This document shows, piece by piece, positions 11,737 through 55,282 of a DNA stretch of 64,000 nt. Under the pieces are notes generated by a model. That model was not told the DNA's origin, did not search any database, and saw only the letters and a list, made by a program, of their open reading frames with translations. Position 1 is the stretch's first letter; every line of letters starts with the position of its first letter. Where the stretch lies: NCBI GenBank assembly GCA_964016885.1, contig OZ024740.1:92628001-92692000 (forward strand). The letters run 5' to 3'. This DNA is from Eledone cirrhosa (lineage: Eukaryota). The translations under genes were made by a program, and so were the position numbers.

Positions 11737-11929
11737 TCACTATATATATATATATATATACATATACACATATTTTTTTTTGCACCATGGAGCATGTGTG
11801 TTTACGTATGTCATTGTGTTTATATGTGGGTAGAGATGTGTGCTGATGTAGGTATGTATGTTGACGTGTGTATGTTGTGGGTTCGTCTTAGGGAGAAGTG
11901 TTTAGACGGGGTCCGTATTTGTTAATAAA

Positions 11930-12430
11930 TTAAGATTCCTTGCTGATGCGGTGGGTGTGGGTGGCATTATCTTTAAATTTGTAGATGGGAAAGATTCTGA
12001 AGTTGGGATGATTTTGGTCGGCACAGGTATCAATGTGTTCACTCAGTGGTATTTTCCTGTATTCCCGTATATTAATTTGGGATCTATGGACAGTCATGCG
12101 TTGGCGGAGGCTGTTTTTGGTCTGGCCTATGTATTGTTCTCGACAACCTGAGCAAGTTAATACATATATTAGATTTTCCGATGCACATGTGAAATTGTGT
12201 TTTACTATAAAACGTTGTCCTTCTTTGAAATAGAATTCCGAACCCTCTATTAGGTTGATGCAAATGCCACAGTTGGGTCTATCGCATTTTTTTACTGTGG
12301 GTTTCGTTGTTGTGGTTGGCAGTACTTTGGCATGTGTTAGGATGTTTTTCATTGACTTGGATTGTCTTTTGCTCTTTATGATATCGTATGTTCGTAGGAT
12401 TTGGTTCATTCTATGGTCCTTTTTCAACAC
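11930..12430 (-). pseudogene. PLE Cys-rich linker plus GIY-YIG endonuclease (truncated element)
   Basis: CDRPNCGIC..NLIYVLTCSGCREQYIGQTKNSLRQRMTVH; closely similar to the C-terminus of 51092-53368. Confidence 0.9.
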
Positions 12431-13659
12431 AGGAATGTTCTGGAGGATGGTGTCAAAGGCCTCATTGTTGAGGGGGCTGTGTGTGGAGATGTATGGAAGA
12501 GCTTTTAGTTTCGGTTGATTTACTTTAGGGTGTCTAAGGTCCTGGGTACTGAGTTTTAGGGCACGTTGGATTCCATTGTCAATTAGTGATGCAGGGTAGT
12601 CCCTTCCTATGAGTGTGTCCTTTAGTTCTTGTAGCCGTAAGAAGCAGGTGTTTTTATTGGAGACTATAGTACAGATTCTCTTGGCTAAGTTGTAGGGAAT
12701 ATTAATTTTAACGTGTCTAGGGTGGCAAGAGTTGAAAGGAAGATATTGCTTGGAGTCTGTGGGCTTGTAGTATATATGTCACATAGTTACTCTATATATC
12801 CGTATATCTCTCATCCACACCCTCTCTTACTATCTGGCTATATCTATGGTCGTTAAATTTGTAGTGGTTGATCACGATGTTAAAGCACTAAAAAATAATT
12901 CATATTACAATGTTGGGGTTAGATCGTGTGTCCTTGTAAGTAATATGCTTTTATTTTAGAATTCCTCATGTTTCTTCCGTTTTTGGCACCCATAATTTCC
13001 CTGCTCCACGATGCGTATATATTAATAATAATAAAAATAGATTTATTGGCCGAGAATCGAAACCGACTAATCAACAAGTTGATAGATATGGTCGGTACAT
13101 GTTACCTGTTGATTAGTCGTCGTTCGTCGTGGAATAAAGATATGCAATATATAACATTTCCGGTTGAAATTTAAACTGAAATATTTGAAAAAGGAATATT
13201 GGAAATAAGCAGATGAATTGATTCTATGATATGGACATGTTCTTCGATATGTGCCATAACTGACTCCTTAGATGTTCTCTTTTGATATCGATCTTTCACG
13301 TCGACTTACCAGCACTTATTTCAAGATGTTGACTGAATTGATTAAATTGATATCAGTTAGCGGCATTCCGATTTGACAGTGAAAATCAATTAGATCACGT
13401 TAATGCACTGTTATATTCTTTATCATATACCATTTTCAAAATGGTGTTGCAGAGGTTTTTTTTTTTTTTTTTTTCTCAGAACCCATGTATTTTCAATAAA
13501 AGCTAAACAGGATTCAATGCAAATAAATAAATGTTGAGAAGATTTTTGTTGTATCATCAGCTGACTGTGAGGACTGGTATCACTGGCAAAATTAAAATTG
13601 AATTGGCCGGGAAGATATCCCATGAGTAATCATATGATCATTGTGAAAGACAAATATAT

Positions 13660-43263: not shown

Positions 43264-46200
43264 CTCACATCTGGTTGGTCTCTGAATGTTACTTGTTTTA
43301 TATGGAAAAAGTAGCTCGAAATGTTGCCAGGTTTTTCGAGAAGTAATTTGATTTGTTTGTCAATAATTATAATAAATTTCGCGCCAGTTCGCGTTACAAT
43401 ATTTCTTCAAATAAGAGGGGGGTTTTATCACAGGTTGTTTTTTTCATATATGAGTGTTTGAATTTCTTTTTACTTGAAAAAAGGGGCTCACGAAGGCTTT
43501 TTTTTAGTTGGTTGTAAATGAAATTATGGCTGTCACGTGAACAACTTTTCATTAATTTTTTCGTGCCCTTATTTCAAAATACATTCTGTAGTCTTTTTAG
43601 AGATTTTTATGGTAAGTGAAAGATAATGGTCAAGAGAAAGGGATGGGAGATTTGTTCTGGTTCAATGAATATGGTTAGTTCGCTGGGGTGACAGAATTCA
43701 GATTTTCTATTGAATAAAGAAAGTAAAGATATGTATGTTTATTTGTGTGCTTGTGTGTGTGTGCGTGTGTGTGTGTGTGTTTCGTGTGTGTGTGTGTTTG
43801 AATTTCTTTACTTAAAAAAAAGATGGCACACGAAGGCTTATTTTTAATAAAGGTGATCTGATTGGTTATAAATGAAATTTGGCTGTCACGTGAACAAGTT
43901 TTCATTACATTTTTGCGCCCTTATTTGGAAATCTATGCTGTAGCCTTTATAGAGAATGTTATGACAAGGGAAAGATAGTGGTCAAGAGAAATGGGATTGG
44001 GAGAATTGTTCTGGTTCAGTGAATATGGTTAGTTCGCTGGGGTGTCAGAGTTCAGATTTTCTATTGAAGTAAAGATATGTATGTTTATTTGTGTGCTTGT
44101 GTGTGTGTGTGCGTGTGTGTGTGTGTATATGTGTGTGTATGTGTGTATTGGAAGAGGATTCTATTAGTAGAAATGGGGGAGGGAGTTGTTTGTGTGTGTA
44201 TATGGGTGTTATGTGTGTGTGTGTGCGAGTATGTTAAGATGGAGAGAATATATATTATGTGTGTGTGTATATATGTGTGTAGGAAAGTGGTTCTATTAGT
44301 AGTAATGGGGGAGGGAGTTGTGGGTGTGGGGGTTGTTATGTGTGTGTATGGATGTTATGTGTGTGGGAGTATGGTTAGCATGTTAAGATGAAGAGAATAT
44401 ATATATATATATATTGTGTGTGTGTGTGGGTGTGTGTAGGAAAATGATTCCTTTAGTAGGAATATTTTTAAATGAACATATTTTCCTTACTTATTCGTAT
44501 GTGTTCTGTTGTATTGTCAGTGCAAACGTATGTTAAGGTTTATTTAGTTCGGGTTTTTATTTTCTAAAGTAGAAGGTGTTATGTGTGTGTGTGTGTCATA
44601 TTATGGTGTTGACATAATGTATATTAAACCATATTTAATGCTGGTTTATATTTTTGAATAAACATATTTTCCTTATTTATTCGTATTTGTTCTGTTGTAT
44701 TGTTAGCGCAAAGGTAAAATGGGATGACTTGGAATTTGGGTGTCTTATTACTTGCGGAAATGTCTAGATGTGCACTTAATGGTATCTGTATCGTGGTTAG
44801 ATCTCGTAATTGTTGGCGATGAACTGTCATTCTGTTTCTGAGTGTGAGTTTAGTTTGTCCTATATAATCTTCATTGCATCCTTTACATTTAATGGCATAA
44901 AGAAATTTTTTTGATGAGCAAGTGAAGTGATTTTTTACAGTAAAACTTTGTCCTGATTTAAATGTATACGTGTTGCCTTCAATGAGGTGAGTGCAGGTTC
45001 CACAATTAGAGTGAACACATTTTTTTATACTTGGTTGTCGGTTTGTGGTAGGTAATTTGGCATTAGTGAGTAATGTTTTCAGTGATTTTCGTTGTCTTTT
45101 GCTTTTGATTATTTTGTGTGTTTCAAGGGCTTTTTTCATTCTTGGGTTTTGTTTTAGTAGTGGGATGTTCTTGTGAATAGTGTTGTAAGCTTCCGCATTT
45201 CTTGGGTTGTGTGTTGAGATATATGATAGAATATTGGACGTACCTTGAATTTGTTTCTGTTTCCGTAATTCATCAATGCCTATTGCTTTAGCGTTTCTAT
45301 TCCATTATTTATTAGTAATAGTGGGTAGTCTCTCTCGAGTAGAATTTCTTTTAATTCTTGAAGTCTTTTATTTCGCGTTTCATAATTGGAGACAATTATG
45401 CAAATTCTTCTTGTAGGTTAAAAGGAATGTTCGTCTTCGTGTGCTTTGGATGGTTGGAGGTGAATAGCAGATATTGTTTGGAATTTGTTGGTTTGTAGTG
45501 TATGTCAGTTTCGATATTTGTGTCTTTTTTTAAGATTAAGATGTCCAGAAATGGGATTTGATCTTGGATGTATTCCATTGTGAATTGGCTGTGGTTATTG
45601 ATGCCGTTTATTAAGTTTTTGAAATCCTTCAGTTGGTCGAGTGTGTGGGACCAAAGAATGAGGCAATCATCCAAGTAGCGTTTCCAATTCTCTGATAAAT
45701 ATTTGTGGAAGTTCAATACGTATTTTGATTTGGACTGTTCGTATATCTGGACTTCTAAGTATGCCATGACTAAGTTGGCATAAGTTGGAGCGGCTTTTGT
45801 ACCCATTGCATTCCACGATATGATTGCTTGTAAGTATTGCCATCGAAAACAAAATAGTTGTTCTGTAAGATGAATTATAATCCCTCGGTGATGAAGCTTT
45901 TTTCTATTCTGTCAGGTATCTCATTGGGCTATTTCTCTAGCCAGAATCCTATCGCTTCTAGTCCGTATTGGTGTGGGATCGTTGTGTAGAGATTCACTAC
46001 ATCGAAAGACACAATAATAGTGTCGTTGTTGACATGTTTGGGGAGGTGGTTTAAGAGTTCCAGATCGTCTCTTACAAGGCTTGGTATGTGTTTCAGTATT
46101 TGTTTCAGTAGTATGTCTATAAAGTTGCTCAGTCTGTGTGTTTCACATTGTGGGCCCGCTACCATTGGTCTTAATTTAAGGTCTGTGGGGTATTGTGTGT

Positions 46201-46695
46201 TCACACAGGCTGAGGTGGCTTGTTTACAGGCATCGTTGATTATTTTACATTTGTGGATCTTTGGAAGTCCGTACGGTTGCTGGTTTTGTATTCAAAATTT
46301 GTTAAATAATCGCGTTCCTTTTTAGTTACGTCTTACTGGTATCGATAAATCAGTGTGTTTAATTTGGTCATTATTTTTGATTGCTGGTAGGTTTTTACTC
46401 TTTCATAGTAATTAGTATTTAGTAAGAGAGAGAACATAGAATTTTTATATTTTTCAGCCTCCATAATGACAACAGTACTTCCCTTGTCCGCTTCCTTAAT
46501 TATAACGTCCGTATTGTTTTTTAGTTCATGGATAATCTCCCATTCCCTTCGACTCGTGTTGGGTTTGGGTTTAAGTTGCGGTAGTTCATGGTATGGGAAG
46601 GTAGCTATGTGGTCACAAAATTTGTCCAGAACTCTGTTTCTACCTTTTGTTGGGTGTAGCTGCTTCTATTCCGTACAATTGATTCGTCGTTATTC
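43260..46695 (-). mobile_element. 5'-truncated, frameshifted Penelope-like element (Neptune-like): RT, GIY-YIG and long 3' UTR
   Basis: ORF pieces 45929-46204 (LRPMVAGP, SFDVVNLYT), 45396-45806 (MGTKAAP, WKRYLDD, FLDI) and 44624-45139 (LYAIKC..YIGQT). The 3' UTR has a duplication (about 43460-43720 and 43800-44080). Confidence 0.9.
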
Positions 46696-48558: not shown

Positions 48559-48803
48559 GGAGAGAGAGAAGTCCTACTCATTCCTATTACCCACTCTACT
48601 AGCCTAAGTATTGAGTACTTTGGTGCGTTATGGTCTACCTGGTTCCTTACCACATTTCCTTCGTTATATATATATATATATTATATATATATATATATAT
48701 AGAAAATTGAGGTTGGTAATGGCACATGGAATATATAAGAGACAGAATACTTTTTTGTGAAAAAACATAATTTTATAAGGTAAGGAAATAATAAAGGGTA
48801 TAA

Positions 48804-48851
48804 AAAATGACCGGTTTCGATGGGTCTGCAAAAGCCATCTTTTCAAATGTT
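48804..48851 (-). ncRNA. Hammerhead ribozyme motif (inverted pLTR copy)
   Basis: Reverse complement is identical to 49641-49688. Confidence 0.72.
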
Positions 48852-49307
48852 GATTAATATTAAGAAAAATTAATAATACGAAGAGTTAAAATTTGAGACT
48901 TGAAAATTCAAGTATAAAATTCATTGTGGGATTTCATAGCAGTTTTCATCTAGGTAGCAACAACAGGTTGACTGCTGTGTCCCTTTCTGGTAGTGAATGA
49001 GAAGTTATTTGGGGTGTGGGTTATTTTATAATGGTCAGATTTAGCAATCACCAACTGGCCAGCTGCTGGTCAGTGAGGGGGTGGAAGCAATATACATACA
49101 CATATCTTCCTGTGATGGGTAGGAGAGTGGAGCGTGATAGAAAGGGATTTAGTGCACTTACACCTATATATACACACATACCTTCATCCACACATACATA
49201 CATATACATATACATATATATATATATATATATATACATATACACACATACATGCACACACACATACATATACATACACACATACACATACACACATATA
49301 TACACAT

Positions 49308-49338
<31 letters not shown>

Positions 49339-49640
49339 CACACACACATATATATACACATACACATACATCCAGATACACACATACACACGCACACACA
49401 CACACATATATATATATACACATATATATATATATATATATATATAGATACACACACACACACAAAAATAACCCACACCCCAAATAACTTCTCATTCACT
49501 ACCAGAAAGGGACACAGCAGTCAACCTGTTGTTGCTACCTAGATGAAAACTGCTATGAAATCCCACAATGAATTTTATACTTGAATTTTCAAGTCTCAAA
49601 TTTTAACTCTTCGTATTATTAATTTTTCCTAATATTAATC

Positions 49641-49688
49641 AACATTTGAAAAGATGGCTTTTGCAGACCCATCGAAACCGGTCATTTT
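49641..49688 (+). ncRNA. Minimal type I hammerhead ribozyme, U3-A8 core variant (5' pLTR)
   Basis: aacat-TTGAAAA-GATGG-cttttgcagac-CCATC-GAAA-CCGG-TC-atttt: stem II GATGG/CCATC, palindromic stem III ACCGGT, GUC cleavage triplet ending at 49683. Confidence 0.75.
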
Positions 49689-49856
49689 TTATACCCTTTA
49701 TTATTTTCTTACCTTATAAAATTATGTTTTTTCACAAAAAAGTATTCTGTCTCTTATATATCCATGTGCCATTACCAACCTCAATTTTCTCTATAACCTT
49801 CGTTTTGTGTAGAAAATTACACTTTTCATATATACTAACCTACGCAAATCCGGAAA

Positions 49857-51122
49857 ATGGCACTGGAACAAGACAACACAACTTCAAACTCCAATATCAA
49901 TGAGGAAATCCTGAAAATCCTAAAAGAGATAAATGGAAAACTCACCATTCTGACAAAAAAACAGGATATACCCCAAACCACCACACCGACTGACAACCAA
50001 ATTTATTTAAACGTTCAAAACGTATGCAACTCCATCGAAAAACTTATGAATACCAACACAGAACAAACGACATTGCTCCATATCAAAAACCAAATGGGAC
50101 ACCTCTGGAAAAAACATCTAAAAACCAGAAAATTCACTTTCTGGAATATGATAAAAAACCTCAACAAAGCTGGAATTTACCAAAAATGGATTAACTCAAC
50201 ACCGATAGTTTTACCACGTAAATTCGAAATAAAGCATATTACAAACGAACCTGAACCAGAAAGAAAACTCCGTGAACAAATGTCACTCAACAGGATAAAC
50301 ATGGAAATAGAACTCCTAAAATTAAGGGCCACCTCAAACGAGCAAGAGTATAAGGATACTGATAAAAATATGGAGGAAGAATGCACTAAAAAGGCCGAGG
50401 GAACAACCCTACAAAATTTAATCAAATCGTGGAAACAGGACTGCGAGAATGCAGAAACTATTTCCCTTAAACGGTGGGAAAAATCCGAAAACTGGTTCCT
50501 CAAATATGAAGAAGACTTTAAAAGGACGCACCAAACAGGTAACCCCTTTATAAAGCATTTGAACATAACAAGAACTACAACAGACACATTTACACCACCA
50601 AACCCAACACACACTGACCACAGGCACATCCCCCACCAACACAAACCAAATACGGCCAACTACACCAAAATAAACACACCCAACCACCACAACACAGGTT
50701 TCCGTAGAAATGCCCCCCACATAAACCAACGACGAAAAAACATAGATCCAACTCACAACACACACACCACATTCCTCAGAAGAAATCCACCCAGACCACT
50801 TGAAATCACAACATAACTTACCCACAACCACACCAGACATCACCCTCAATCCAACAAAAGACAACCCCCCAGCCTCAACACTCTGTACCACAGAAATAAC
50901 GCACCCAGACCACATGAACCAACAACAGAACCCTTGCTCATCAACAACCACAACACATACCACCCCCACCATCACATTCACCCTCATGAAACAACAAGCT
51001 ACAGACCCACACGCAAGAGACCAACAAAATATAATCACACACAAAACTACATTCCTTTTTTAGGGAAAAGCCTGAAATACCAGGATACTCGATGGCCCCC
51101 CCTCAGGAGAAACCAAAAATAA
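49857..51122 (+). CDS. PLE ORF1, uncharacterised helical/coiled-coil protein with basic H/T/N/P-rich tail (319 aa to TAA 50814-16; frame stays open to 51122, 421 codons)
   Basis: ATG about 27 nt after the pLTR end. Manual translation shows ORFs 49857-50816 and 50934-51122 share a frame with only one stop between them. Confidence 0.75.
51056..51107 (+). promoter_or_regulatory. Putative -1 programmed ribosomal frameshift signal (U_UUU_UUA, 8-nt spacer, stem-loop)
   Basis: ORF1 codons CCT TTT TTA GGG; the -1 frame continues AGG GAA AAG CCT GAA ATA CCA GGA TAC TCG ATG into ORF2. CCTG(A) at 51071 can pair with CAGG 51081-84 or TCAGG 51103-07. Confidence 0.65.
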
Positions 51123-53368
51123 TCAACCTCTCAAAGACACCTCTAACCAACACACAAATCAACATTTTAAGTAAGGGCCTGAAATTTACACCTACACCAC
51201 GTAAACCAAACTTCCCCGAAATGAAGGATGACATCATGGAATACTGCCGAAAGCTGCGACTAACGGAATTCTTCCACAACGACACCAACACTGAAGACGA
51301 ATCACTGGTTAGAAATAAAAGCAATTTCTGCCCACAAAAGGGAAGAAATAAAGCACTGGACACGTACTGCGAACACATCACCAACTTTCCCTATGAAAAA
51401 ATTACAAATAAACACACGAAATCAAACCTATCTACACACGAATGGGAAGAATTATTCACACTTAGAAACAACCCTGAGATAACTATCAAAGAAGCCGATA
51501 AAGGCAGTACTGTTGTCATTATGAATACGGACTACTATAGGACCCTCGCACTTAACATTTTAGAAAACAACACATACTATGAAAAAACAGAAAACTACAA
51601 ACACACCAAAACAATGGGGAACCTTTTGACCTTACTGAATAAATACCGCAACAGCTTAACCACGAAAGAGTTTAACTATATAAGCCACTTCAAATGCAAT
51701 ACAAGCTCTTTTTACGGCTTACCGAAACTTCACAAATGTAAACCCATAAACGATGCATGTGACACCTCAACCAACAATTACATTGAACTAACACCACCAG
51801 AAGACCTAAAACTCAGGCCAATTATAGCAGGCCCTACATGTGAAACCCACAGACTTAGCAAATTTCTGGACATCCTACTGAAACCCTTTCTACAACATAT
51901 ACAGAGCTACATACGAGATGACCTTGACATGCTGAAACACCTCCCTAAAACAGTAAGTGCAAATACAATTCTTGTCTCCTTTGACGTAATAAACCTCTAC
52001 ACAAACATACCTCACAACTATGGAATAACAGCAGTCCAATACTGGCTTAACACACACCCATCAGAAATACCGACACGCATCAACACAGATTTTATCACTG
52101 ACGGACTCCGCTTTATCCTACAAAATAACTACTTCACATTCAATGGTTCAACATACAGACTAGTATCAGGTACGGCAATGTGCACGAAAGTAGCACCCAC
52201 ATATGCCAACCTAGTCATGGGATTCCATGAACAACAAATATACAGTCAGTCCCTTCTCTTATTTGGAGACTCTTTCCACACACACCTCAAAGCCAATTGG
52301 AAAAGATATCTAGACGACTGCTTTATCCTATGGCAAGAAGACATGAACTCACTTACTACGTTTAAAAACATGATAAACAACATAGATAATAACATACAAT
52401 TCACAATGGAATCCAATCCTAAGGAATTAGCCTTCTTGGATATTCTCATCTCTGTAATAGACGGGAAATTAGATACAGATATATTCTATAAACCCACAGA
52501 TTCCAAGCAATACCTCTTTTTCACATCAAGTCACCCAAAACATACAAAACGTAACATTCCTTACAATTTGGCCAAACGTATATGTACCATAGTATCAGAT
52601 CCACCTAAACGGGAGCAAAGACTAAAGGAACTAAAAGACACCCTTATCTTAAGAGCCTTTCCACTTGAAATAATCAACAATGGAATAGACAGGGCAAAAC
52701 ACCTAAATCCCCATCAACTTAACAATCCAAAACAGAAAACCACACTCAACACCCTGCCATATGTATCCACTTTCAACCCCAGAAATACCGAAATGTTTGA
52801 TCACCTACACAAAAACCTCCCCATCCTACTTAAAGATGTAAAAATGAAGTCTATTCTTGAAACACACAAGATCCTTAAAAGTAAAAGACAACCCAAATCA
52901 CTTAAACGCATTCTCACTGGACCAAATATACCCAAACCAATCCTCAACCCTACAGTTACCAAATGTGGTAGAACAAACTGTGGAACGTGCCTCTACCTCA
53001 CTGAAGGACAAACATTTACATTCAAAGATGGCCAAACATTTACAGTAAAAAACAATTTCACCTGCAACTCGGAGAACTTGATTTACGCAATAACTTGCGG
53101 TGGGTGCAAACACAACTACATAGGACAGACGGGCACCTCATTACGCAAAAGAATGACCATCCACCGCCAACGAATCCGGGACGCTAATACAAGAAAAATC
53201 CCCTTGAGCAGCCATATTGCGAACTGCGCAGGAATGACACTACCCAACTTCAAAATCTTCCCCTTCTACAAGTGCTCAGATTCGTTCACACAGCAACAAA
53301 GAATAAACAAAGAAAATCTATTCCTTAACAAATTTAAACCAAAACTAAACGGGTTATCACCCCAATAG
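51092..53368 (+). CDS. PLE ORF2: reverse transcriptase, Cys-rich linker and GIY-YIG endonuclease (Neptune-like)
   Basis: KEADKG, FYGLPKLHK, LRPIIAG, SFDVINLYTNIP, GTAMC (consensus GTAMG), WKRYLDD, FLDI, CGRTNCGTC, LIYAITC..YIGQTG..LRKRM. Confidence 0.96.
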   Translation: MAPPQEKPKIINLSKTPLTNTQINILSKGLKFTPTPRKPNFPEMKDDIMEYCRKLRLTEFFHNDTNTEDESLVRNKSNFCPQKGRNKALDTYCEHITNFPYEKITNKHTKSNLSTHEWEELFTLRNNPEITIKEADKGSTVVIMNTDYYRTLALNILENNTYYEKTENYKHTKTMGNLLTLLNKYRNSLTTKEFNYISHFKCNTSSFYGLPKLHKCKPINDACDTSTNNYIELTPPEDLKLRPIIAGPTCETHRLSKFLDILLKPFLQHIQSYIRDDLDMLKHLPKTVSANTILVSFDVINLYTNIPHNYGITAVQYWLNTHPSEIPTRINTDFITDGLRFILQNNYFTFNGSTYRLVSGTAMCTKVAPTYANLVMGFHEQQIYSQSLLLFGDSFHTHLKANWKRYLDDCFILWQEDMNSLTTFKNMINNIDNNIQFTMESNPKELAFLDILISVIDGKLDTDIFYKPTDSKQYLFFTSSHPKHTKRNIPYNLAKRICTIVSDPPKREQRLKELKDTLILRAFPLEIINNGIDRAKHLNPHQLNNPKQKTTLNTLPYVSTFNPRNTEMFDHLHKNLPILLKDVKMKSILETHKILKSKRQPKSLKRILTGPNIPKPILNPTVTKCGRTNCGTCLYLTEGQTFTFKDGQTFTVKNNFTCNSENLIYAITCGGCKHNYIGQTGTSLRKRMTIHRQRIRDANTRKIPLSSHIANCAGMTLPNFKIFPFYKCSDSFTQQQRINKENLFLNKFKPKLNGLSPQ

Positions 53369-53769
53369 AATTGTCATAAAATATAAACACACATACGCAC
53401 GGAATCACTACTATTAAAGACCATAGACCAATTCTGTAGAATCAGGTTTATTCATTGACAGACCATGCCTTTGTGTGACCAACACATCCATGTTAAACCC
53501 TGCACGTGCACACACATATATCTATATATATATGCGCACACAGAATTCACCACTGTCGGTTGCGGGGCCCAATCTACATGAAGAACTCAATGTGATCAGA
53601 ATGACTTGTATTTTAATTTCACTGCCCCAACTTCTTATATTATGGAAAAAATATATGTGTCTGTATGTATATATATATATATATATTTGAAGGCCATTTC
53701 TCTGTGTGTGGGTGTATGTATGTGTATATGTGTGTGTGTGTGTATGTGTGTGTATGTGGATGTATGTAT

Positions 53770-53802
<33 letters not shown>

Positions 53803-53878
53803 ATATATATGTGTGTGTGTGTATGTTTGTATGTGTGTATGTATATATATAAGTGTGTGTGTGTGTATGTATGTGTGG

Positions 53879-53936
<58 letters not shown>

Positions 53937-54310
53937 ATATATATATATGTATATGTATATGTATGTATGTGTGGATGAAGGTATGTGTGTATATATAGGT
54001 GTAAGTGCACTAAATCCCTTTCTATCACGCTCCACTCTCCTACCCATCACAGGAAGATATGTGTATGTATATTGCTTCCACCCCCTCACTGACCAGCAGC
54101 TGGCCAGTTGACGATTGCTAAATCTGACCTTTATAAAATAACCCACACCCCAAATAACTTCTCATTCACTACCAGAAAGGGACACAGCAGTCAACCTGTT
54201 GTTGCTACCTAGATGAAAACTGCTATGAAATCCCACAATGAATTTTATACTTGAATTTTCAAGTCTCAAATTTTAACTCTTCGTATTATTAATTTTTCTT
54301 AATATTAATC

Positions 54311-54358
54311 AACATTTGAAAAGATGGCTTTTGCAGACCCATCGAAACCGGTCATTTT
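54311..54358 (+). ncRNA. Hammerhead ribozyme motif (3' pLTR)
   Basis: Identical to 49641-49688. Confidence 0.75.
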
Positions 54359-54737
54359 TTATACCCTTTATTATTTCCTTACCTTATAAAATTATGTTTT
54401 TTCACAAAAAAGTATTCTGTCTCTTATATATTCCATGTGCCATTACCAACCTCAATTGTCTCTATAACCTTCGTTTTGTGTAGAAAATTACACTTTTCAT
54501 ATATATATATATATATCGCTCGCTTTACTCGATTTACTACTCCTAATAGCTTTATTTAGCTATTGCTCGCACCAACTGGAGGTATATGATTTTTAAAGCG
54601 ATGAAAGACCAATGATGGTTGGAAAATCACTGATGAAGGACTATTTTTATCATATGTAACCCATGTGCAACCACGCAGTATTCTTTCTTCTCATGTTTTA
54701 TATATATATATATACACACATACACACACACACACAC

Positions 54738-54804
<67 letters not shown>

Positions 54805-54917
54805 CATACATTTATGTATATAAGCAAAAGGGATATACAATTTGTTGGTAATTCAACAAATATAAATGCTTATAACTGATTCAGTGTACTCGACAAGTTT
54901 TCTGGAGTATAATATTC

Positions 54918-55270
54918 AATGATATTAAATAAATGGAAACTATTTTTATAAAATCATATTTATTCTATTATATATATTTCAATGGTACAAAATCTTTGGT
55001 ACGCACTCATCAGATAAAATACAAAGTTTGTATTATAAATATTGAAATAACCAAGAAAAAATACCTTAACGGTTCAAGTTTTTCCTGGATAGACTAGCAA
55101 GGAAAATGTTGAACCGTTAAGGTATTCTTTCTTTGTTATGTCAATATTTATAAAACAAACTTTGTATTTTATTTGATGAGGGCGTACCAAAGTTTTGGTA
55201 CACTTGAAATATATATAATAGAATACATAATTTTTTATAAATATACTTTCCATTTATTTAATGTCATTCT
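54918..55270. mobile_element. Non-coding foldback element (about 170-bp arms), each arm carrying a hammerhead motif
   Basis: Arms mirror around GATAGACTAG (about 55088-55098). Motif (C/T)TGATGA-G(G/T)GCGTACC-loop-(G/T)GTAC..TT-GAAA-TATA-TA at 54961-55020 (minus) and 55165-55224 (plus). Confidence 0.7.
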
Positions 55271-55282
55271 ATATATATTAAA

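Follow-up and report, generated by a model that had tools for sequence, protein, structure and literature searches.

The canonical endonuclease-bearing (EN+) Penelope-like elements (PLEs) are characterized as having a single open reading frame (ORF) in the abstract of Craig et al. (2021; PMC8557442), and the legend of Fig. 1 of that paper gives an ORF1 with a frameshift and a pseudoknot for some PLE types, the clades being unspecified in the legend. Two ORFs are given for Athena in the part of PMC13159263 that deals with it; the passage of PMC12602865 on a killifish Neptune describes a short, non-overlapping ORF1, with no mention of a frameshift in that passage; and esterase-bearing ORF1s of PLEs are noted in a section of PMC3905857. 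Here we analyzed a Penelope-type retroelement at positions 49857-53368 (plus strand) of a 64,000-nucleotide (nt) stretch of the Eledone cirrhosa genome (assembly GCA_964016885.1, contig OZ024740.1, 92,628,001 to 92,692,000 of the forward strand). This stretch is called the window below, all positions are window coordinates, and the family of the element is called family A. The element carries two ORFs, and the ORF for the reverse transcriptase (RT) and endonuclease (EN), ORF2, lies in the -1 phase with respect to ORF1. Sequence comparisons indicate that -1 ribosomal frameshifting at a U_UUU_UUA heptamer probably yields an ORF1-RT-EN fusion.

With the Neptune group the element shares the RT, a CX2-5CxxC linker, a GIY-YIG domain with two cysteines, direct and inverted pseudo-long terminal repeats (pLTRs), (TA)n and a minimal hammerhead; unlike that group, which is single-ORF according to its description, it has a separate ORF1 of 421 amino acids (aa) joined in the -1 phase. 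The two-ORF PLEs (Athena/Terminon and Coprina) resemble it in having a coiled or helical ORF1 set off from the RT by a frameshift, but the present element differs from them by its C-terminal endonuclease, its microsatellite site, its short overlap and no detectable pseudoknot. In HIV-1 (human immunodeficiency virus type 1) gag-pol the slippery site is followed by a 3' stem-loop, and the two frames read FLGK and FFRE. The heptamer of the element is the same and in related families is mostly followed by G; unlike in HIV-1, a stable 3' stem-loop is lacking, ORF1 gave no match to Gag and the zero-frame stop comes 10-40 codons on. U_UUU_UUA is given as the HIV site, with Phe/Leu heterogeneity of the product, in the relevant part of PMC5009743.

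The ORF1-ORF2 junction and its conservation

ORF1 begins with ATG at 49857 and ends with TAA at 51120-51122, which makes 421 codons in intact copies. As in the first-pass annotation of the window, the frame is open from 49857 to 51122 but for one TAA at 50814-50816 (open stretches 49839-50816 and 50817-51122, in the same frame). ORF2 is indeed in the -1 frame, which opens after a TAA at 51032-51034 and runs from 51035 to 53368 (777 codons). The overlap contains T_TTT_TTA at 51056-51062, confirmed to be in the X_XXY_YYZ phase: the zero frame reads xxT-Phe-Leu (IPFLGK) and the -1 frame Phe-Phe (SFFREK). The ORF1 stop lies 19 codons after the heptamer and falls out of the Lys-Ile-Ile codons of ORF2. 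Ribosomes on U_UUU_UUA would slip back by one base and produce a minor fusion next to abundant ORF1 protein; its predicted length, recomputed as 402 + 768 codons, is 1170 aa, as annotated earlier.

T_TTT_TTA is the sole run of at least six Ts on the plus strand of 49857-53368, and among six in-phase heptamers along ORF1 it is the only one with a -1 frame running into ORF2. Still, an overlap of 28 codons would hold a canonical heptamer by chance with p of about 0.16 (about 0.001 for T6R); because a lone heptamer is weak evidence, the case for a frameshift site rests on conservation.

The 29 near-identical copies of the element had been picked by a junction-spanning query, and therefore further checks of the junction were made. 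A search in which the T run was allowed to vary in length found 187 copies; among the first 100 listed, 94 had the exact run, 5 had a substitution and 1 had five Ts. Copies with seven Ts were absent from these 100 and from the whole assembly. When 30 loci of five families were selected by the ORF2 motif alone, 20 had T6 in phase, while the remaining ten had an indel between run and motif (four), a mutated run (four) or a truncation (two). Two related families, B and C, with ~57% ORF2 identity, have 5'-truncated copies on the minus strand of the window (44633-46688 and 11900-12775, respectively), and outside the window their complete copies have this heptamer as well, in the identical phase. 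Thus, the heptamer, its phase and the -1 overlap, whose conservation in full-length copies and related families the first-pass annotation had made a point to check, turned out to be conserved. A separate observation concerns a C run at 51096-51102, after the ATG at 51092, which varied in length in about one third of copies (37 of the first 100 listed), often with 12-14 Cs and TGC instead of TGG; the T6 run hardly varies.

For a broader comparison, 16 families were read as DNA (six from the same genome and ten from public contigs, with 27-57% ORF2 identity to the query). All 16 had T_TTT_TT(A/G) in phase, with Z = G in three, and ORF1 open through the heptamer. The -1 frame opened 0-60 nt before the heptamer in the 16 families and stayed open on to the conserved motif in 15, the exception being family G, for which the copy used is broken. 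Among 97 public loci, T_TTT_TT(A/G) lay where the -1 frame begins, and ORF1 was open across it, in three distant relatives and in all seven close ones whose sequence extends upstream of the RT N-terminus; two more close loci end too soon for judging the heptamer. Most of the distant linker-less elements had one ORF with a 150-180 aa extension. In two linker-bearing PLEs, L065 (260-3406) and L069, the RT frame has a long extension at its N-terminal end and an in-phase T6 is missing, and therefore the junction is not used by every Neptune-like element.

The ORF1 proteins point in the same direction. Among the best 150 ORF1 matches, 106 had the full domain end and a tail of at least 60 aa, and the other 44 were set aside. 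Phe-Leu (FL) was present within the last 45 residues in 81 of these 106 homologues, compared to 3.5% expected. The residue before FL was never Q, K, E, M or W, the codons of which cannot end in T (0 of 81 vs 21% in the background; p = 4e-9 if the proteins are independent); therefore, it is the heptamer at the nucleotide level that is constrained, rather than the dipeptide. Of the marks of a canonical -1 site, the in-phase X_XXY_YYZ heptamer conserved at the nucleotide level is thus present. We found no intact ORF1-ORF2 fusion among the 120 best of 737 ORF2 matches (622-803 aa, with 1327 allowed) or among the 150 best ORF1 matches (100-706 aa), two of which read into ORF2 like broken copies. 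A long-protein search, weak as a test, gave no intact fusion either.

Some observations speak against a frameshift at this heptamer throughout the group. FL was missing in 25 of the 106 tails, some of them apparently truncated or broken. Two close relatives of FL-bearing ORF1s (P0127 and P0129) have YFR at the homologous place, which hints at another shift site. Also, the DNA families and the ORF1 protein clusters partly overlap.

The ORF1 protein consists of a ~235-aa all-helical domain and a tail rich in T, P, N, H and R, ending with FL and 19 more codons. The AlphaFold model has five long helices (predicted local distance difference test score, pLDDT, 82.7). Foldseek gave no match at E<=0.001, and the best fold match (Z 9.1) was to generic helical bundles. 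Pfam had nothing for ORF1 and no family common to its members, the protein atlas gave no usable match, and the viral contig collection contained no relative. A capsid, zinc-knuckle or RRM fold, as expected of a Gag or L1-type ORF1 protein, did not come up in the Pfam and fold searches. A profile search, on the other hand, detected 1207 homologous clusters at 50% identity. The first-pass annotation had spoken of "this family" and of a gag-pol strategy. The family does carry the junction, but the scope was too narrow for a group of this size; "gag-pol" is apt as an analogy, but ORF1, a helical domain with a low-complexity tail, matches neither Gag nor a solved fold. The helical domain and the basic disordered tail suggest that ORF1 may act as an oligomeric partner that binds RNA, as do the ORF1 proteins of other retroelements.

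The position of the ORF1 stop

By stop distance we mean the number of codons that separate the heptamer from the stop of ORF1. In the 81 FL proteins this distance was never below 10; it was exactly 10 in 28 of them, and beyond that stops occurred at ~9% per codon. Among 57 common dipeptides tested, FL alone showed no case below 10 codons. The 16 DNA families had distances of 10 (six families), 11, 12, 12, 17, 19, 19, 20, 23, 30 and 31. The stop thus follows the heptamer at one ribosome-length in six of the 16 DNA families and in 28 of the 81 proteins; the floor holds in all of these families and proteins, and the distance is 19 in the window family. The 10-codon proteins are diverse, with a median identity of 29%.

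Codon 11 past the heptamer (51093-51095 in the window) is a stop in family C, L052, L055, L060, L063, L115 and the 28 proteins, and TGG or Trp in families A and B, L053, P0121, P0147 and P0169. The window family belongs to a well-supported clade with 10-codon relatives; it has TGG where these relatives stop, and its ORF1 ends at 19 codons. The alternation of stop and TGG among sister families is an observation in its own right; speculatively, A-to-I editing of the template, fixed by reverse transcription, is a possible route.

The spacing recurs outside the family ORF1. On a separate RT branch, L115 (920-2839) and L127 (1-975) have U_UUU_UUA with stops at 10 and 11 codons, respectively; their ORF1s are unrelated to the family ORF1 and end in an SGNH-esterase-like domain (GDS recognized by eye, with no Pfam match). 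The endonuclease-less L094 (1200-1254) has A_AAA_AAC, no 3' structure and an ORF1 stop exactly 10 codons on. A 10-codon periodicity in longer overlaps was tried and rejected: 14 of 49 stops fell at 20-21, 30-31 and 40 codons vs 6.9 expected (p 0.006), but we do not rely on it, as the pattern was sought after the fact, the cases are not independent and stops in the ORF2 KII codons account for part of it.

According to the relevant part of 10.1101/2023.02.01.526718, the minimal gap between colliding yeast ribosomes is ten intervening codons, and human stop codons are enriched in disomes. In the E. coli reporters of Smith et al. (2019), in the portion of PMC6815119 that describes them, a trailing ribosome hitting one stalled at UGA shifts -1 on a heptamer, with a peak at 9 codons. 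In the model that we tentatively prefer, a leading ribosome terminating at the ORF1 stop would hold the next one with UUU-UUA in its P and A sites, and the held ribosome would be promoted to slip by -1, with no RNA fold needed. Such a roadblock accounts for both the 10-codon peak and the missing structure.

Like the E. coli reporters, the 10-codon junctions have a heptamer one ribosome-length upstream of a stop and would need no RNA structure; unlike these synthetic, bacterial, 9-codon constructs, they are natural, eukaryotic and spaced by 10 codons, and we infer the collision in them. Our literature search found no natural collision-stimulated -1 site. In SARS-CoV-2, in the results of Bhatt et al. 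(2021; PMC8168617) on this point, the position of the zero-frame stop also matters for -1 output; there, however, the stop is 5 codons on and aids pseudoknot refolding, while here it is never closer than 10 and no pseudoknot was seen.

Several points count against the roadblock. The stop is more than 10 codons away in 53 of 81 proteins and in 10 of 16 DNA families, the window family among them, and therefore not every junction can depend on a terminating ribosome. Families with the 10-codon state group together on the tree, and for this reason the p-values overstate independence. L183 and L169, single copies that are broken and stop earlier (at 3 and 6 codons, respectively), were omitted, and another copy has TAG at codon 7. 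The roadblock alone does not explain why longer gaps are tolerated but shorter ones are not, nor does it explain the stimulation in family A, where codons 10-13 past the heptamer are CGA-TGG-CCC-CCC, with Trp at codon 11 and the stop at 19. Since the stop is so far, the block in family A would be the slow Arg-Trp-Pro-Pro, a second place in the queue or none at all (basal slippage).

The roadblock may extend to the group as a whole, a reading that we put forward with slightly more reserve than the roadblock model itself: a large PLE group would use collision as a natural, programmed -1 stimulator, keeping the ORF1 stop exactly one ribosome-length past the heptamer, with RT-endonuclease output set by ribosome traffic and the speed of termination and without any RNA structure. 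Under this wider use of collision, lineages with longer overlaps would have swapped in pauses or RNA folds.

Alternatives to the proposed collision-stimulated frameshift

The -1 shift could instead be stimulated by a classical 3' stem-loop or pseudoknot, with the 10-codon rule then set by the size of an RNA element in which the stop is embedded; we consider this unlikely. The 8-nt spacer and the short CCTG/CAGG or CCTGA/TCAGG stems that were annotated earlier are present as letters past the heptamer, but they are not supported as an HIV-type 3' stimulator, as the sequence 3' of the heptamer folds like its shuffles (z from +0.2 to +1.1 in four windows). The folding energies in the 16 families were near the shuffle level as well (z from about -1.5 to +1.8), and the 3' region of family C is almost unpaired (0 and -2.4 kcal/mol). 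The covarying 3' structure that the first-pass annotation proposed to test for was not detected: no consensus base pair was common to the five own-genome junctions. Between heptamer and stop, the 10-codon group had no conserved residues or bases beyond a first codon starting with G. On this side of the heptamer, where ORF1 stops is the better conserved signal. A stem-loop or pseudoknot 5-9 nt downstream, the other mark of a canonical -1 site, was therefore found neither in the window family nor in family C, with candidates in a few other families.

These candidates weigh in favor of structure and against a fold-free roadblock. Pseudoknots beating 39 of 40 shuffles were predicted in L055, L131 and L063, two of which are 10-codon families; the E and G families have a six-pair G-C stem; and long-overlap families are G-rich right after FL. 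Moreover, a pseudoknot is present in a distant clade that served as a control, the members of which (L100 at 1780-1845, L101, L111, L117, L118, L122, L124, L125, L129 and L130) have a long ORF1, no visible GIY-YIG endonuclease, A_AAA_AAC and ~200-codon overlaps. In its H-type pseudoknot, which was read from the same eight sequences, pairing was kept in 104 of 104 cells, and 4 of the 13 pairs covary. The energy z-scores of this control were just 0 to -2.5; since a true pseudoknot scored so modestly, energy alone cannot exclude structure.

An equally unlikely explanation keeps the frameshift and attributes the floor to the ORF1 peptide, either through arrest with FL ~10 residues into the exit tunnel or through a tail that needs 10 residues. 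It accounts for the floor even where the stop is distant, and arrest peptides acting at termination are known (the CPA1 upstream ORF). On the other hand, the residues after FL are unconserved, and the same spacing is seen after Lys-Asn (L094) and in unrelated ORF1s.

ORF2 could also be made separately, through leaky scanning, reinitiation or an internal start at the ATG at 51092 or at a stop-overlapping codon, which seems improbable. The ATG at 51092, overlapping the TGG (51092-51095) that is the 11th ORF1 codon past the heptamer, is in the -1 frame, upstream of the conserved motif and in a fair context with G at +4, and the called starts of many homologues are Met codons of this linker; these facts tell against frameshifting. 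Nevertheless, of the 15 DNA families that could be evaluated, 13 lack a Met ahead of the first conserved motif of ORF2. The -1 frame is already open at the heptamer, ten codons ahead of any stop-start overlap, and the heptamer itself would be unexplained.

More doubtful still is that TTTTTTAG serves as a 3' splice or trans-splice acceptor that gives ORF2 its own mRNA. Introns are known in PLEs, AG comes right after T6 in 11 of 16 DNA families, and the codon after FL starts with G in 58 of 81 proteins. However, AG is absent in the other five families (F, L052, L063, L127 and L131) and the codon starts otherwise in 23 of 81 proteins, an acceptor would explain neither the phase relative to ORF1 nor the stop rule, and a downstream AUG is usually absent. 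Two contig runs of unknown kind had no joint at the site, a weak result as the runs look like genomic DNA and cannot show expression or splicing. Of the three outcomes that the first-pass annotation had named as fatal, two did not come out in the sequences: the consensus is not fused, and the AG is not obligatory and an AUG usually absent.

Slippage of RNA polymerase, adding a U in the T run and so producing a minority of in-frame fusion mRNAs, we rate marginally lower again. One contig did have a seventh T (depth 4.9x, in a run of unknown kind), which is a point against ribosomal frameshifting, but retrocopies in the genome never have seven Ts, the phase is fixed though such slippage works in any, and the stop rule is unexplained. 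Finally, that the -1 offset is an assembly error or an indel private to this copy, the element having a single ORF, an idea favored by the other private defects of the window copy and anticipated in the first-pass annotation, is refuted by the heptamer and -1 phase kept family-wide with no fused consensus, and by the same junction in public contigs, in five other families from the same assembly and in a contig of high depth from another sample.

The element, its class and its wider meaning

The ORF2 product has an N-terminal IINLS..GLKFTP motif, an RT with a thumb, a Cys linker and a GIY-YIG endonuclease. In the translation we read the catalytic YLDD at 52307-52318, a zinc-finger-like CX4CxxC linker at 52964-52990 and a GIY-YIG core (LIY...CxxC...YIG, with two Cys between GIY and YIG) at 53078-53125. 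Pfam had no relevant match in the window copy itself; RVT_1 was detected in an intact family copy, and RVT_1 with GIY-YIG in family C. The 737 ORF2 homologues found at E<=1e-10 are annotated with RVT_1 and GIY-YIG.

Upstream of ORF1 lies a 5'-truncated direct pLTR (49465-49834, plus strand), 98.9% identical to 54135-54505, and its start at 49465 recurs in many other copies. The 3' terminal block of microsatellite and pLTR, with (TA)n at the end, occupies 53706-54505 (plus strand), and its inverted counterpart on the 5' side is at 48696-49478 on the minus strand (90.7% identity over 784 nt to the reversed 53706-54466). The window copy has the (TA)n microsatellite on both flanks. By a motif scan, a minimal hammerhead-ribozyme-like motif with a U3-A8 core variant and a palindromic CCGG at helix III was located at 49646-49683 (plus strand); it repeats at 54316-54353 and on the minus strand near 48846. 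The Rfam search gave no hammerhead match, its sole matches being microRNAs driven by the microsatellite. The U3-A8 variant is described for PLE pLTRs in a section of PMC4209133, and the motif present in each pLTR is, by sequence, a putative minimal hammerhead of this type. Two further observations concern this region. In another sample, the depth of the pLTR (49465-49860) was ~100x that of ORF1, which points to abundant non-autonomous pLTR/hammerhead repeats, and an imperfect palindrome (54912-55274, 363 nt, 87%) lies just 3' of the element.

The PLE-type RT with a C-terminal GIY-YIG, the direct and inverted pLTRs and the minimal hammerhead motif are those of EN+ PLEs; the single ORF is not, as two ORFs in -1 phase occur across the family and its relatives. 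The CX2-5CxxC linker and the two Cys between GIY and YIG are as in Neptune, though Nematis and Naiad have both too; the linker is a feature of Neptune/Nematis by the definition given in PMC8557442. The spacing from linker to GIY resembles the Neptune rows and not the short Nematis rows, as judged by eye. A FastTree tree of 57 loci, with no named Neptune reference in it, split the group from linker-less single-ORF elements with support 0.94. From its linker, pLTRs, (TA)n site and hammerhead motif we classify the element as a Neptune-type Penelope retroelement. Relatives come from mussel and clam-associated assemblies. Separately, L131-L147, P0013, P0039, P0043 and P0053 are animal retroelements filed in bacterial metagenome-assembled genomes or symbiont proteomes as host contamination.

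The family is young, with 29 other copies diverging by at most ~1% from the window copy. The window copy itself is judged to be dead, because its ORF1 has the private TAA at 50814-50816 (GAA in 28 of 28 other copies covering the site) and Cys replaces Gly in the RT motif AMG (AMC at 52181, plus strand).

PLEs with an ORF1 and a frameshift are already in print, and the novelty of the two-ORF Neptune architecture is uncertain. We found no paper pairing "Penelope-like" with "programmed ribosomal frameshift", and neither the heptamer nor the stop rule is described for GIY-YIG PLEs in the literature covered, outside of which were key primary papers and Repbase.

If our interpretation is true, the single-ORF picture would be corrected for a large share of EN+ PLEs in molluscs and other animals, and their replicase would be an ORF1-RT-EN fusion. 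An unannotated ORF1 family (>1200 clusters, no Pfam match) would then belong to EN+ PLEs, which matters for the reconstitution of retrotransposition and for genome annotation. With the stop rule, a mechanism demonstrated until now in engineered reporters of bacteria alone would seem to have a eukaryotic counterpart in nature. Dozens of spacers that differ in length occur naturally and make a ready test set, and the output of a transposon enzyme would be tied to ribosome load and to the surveillance of collisions.

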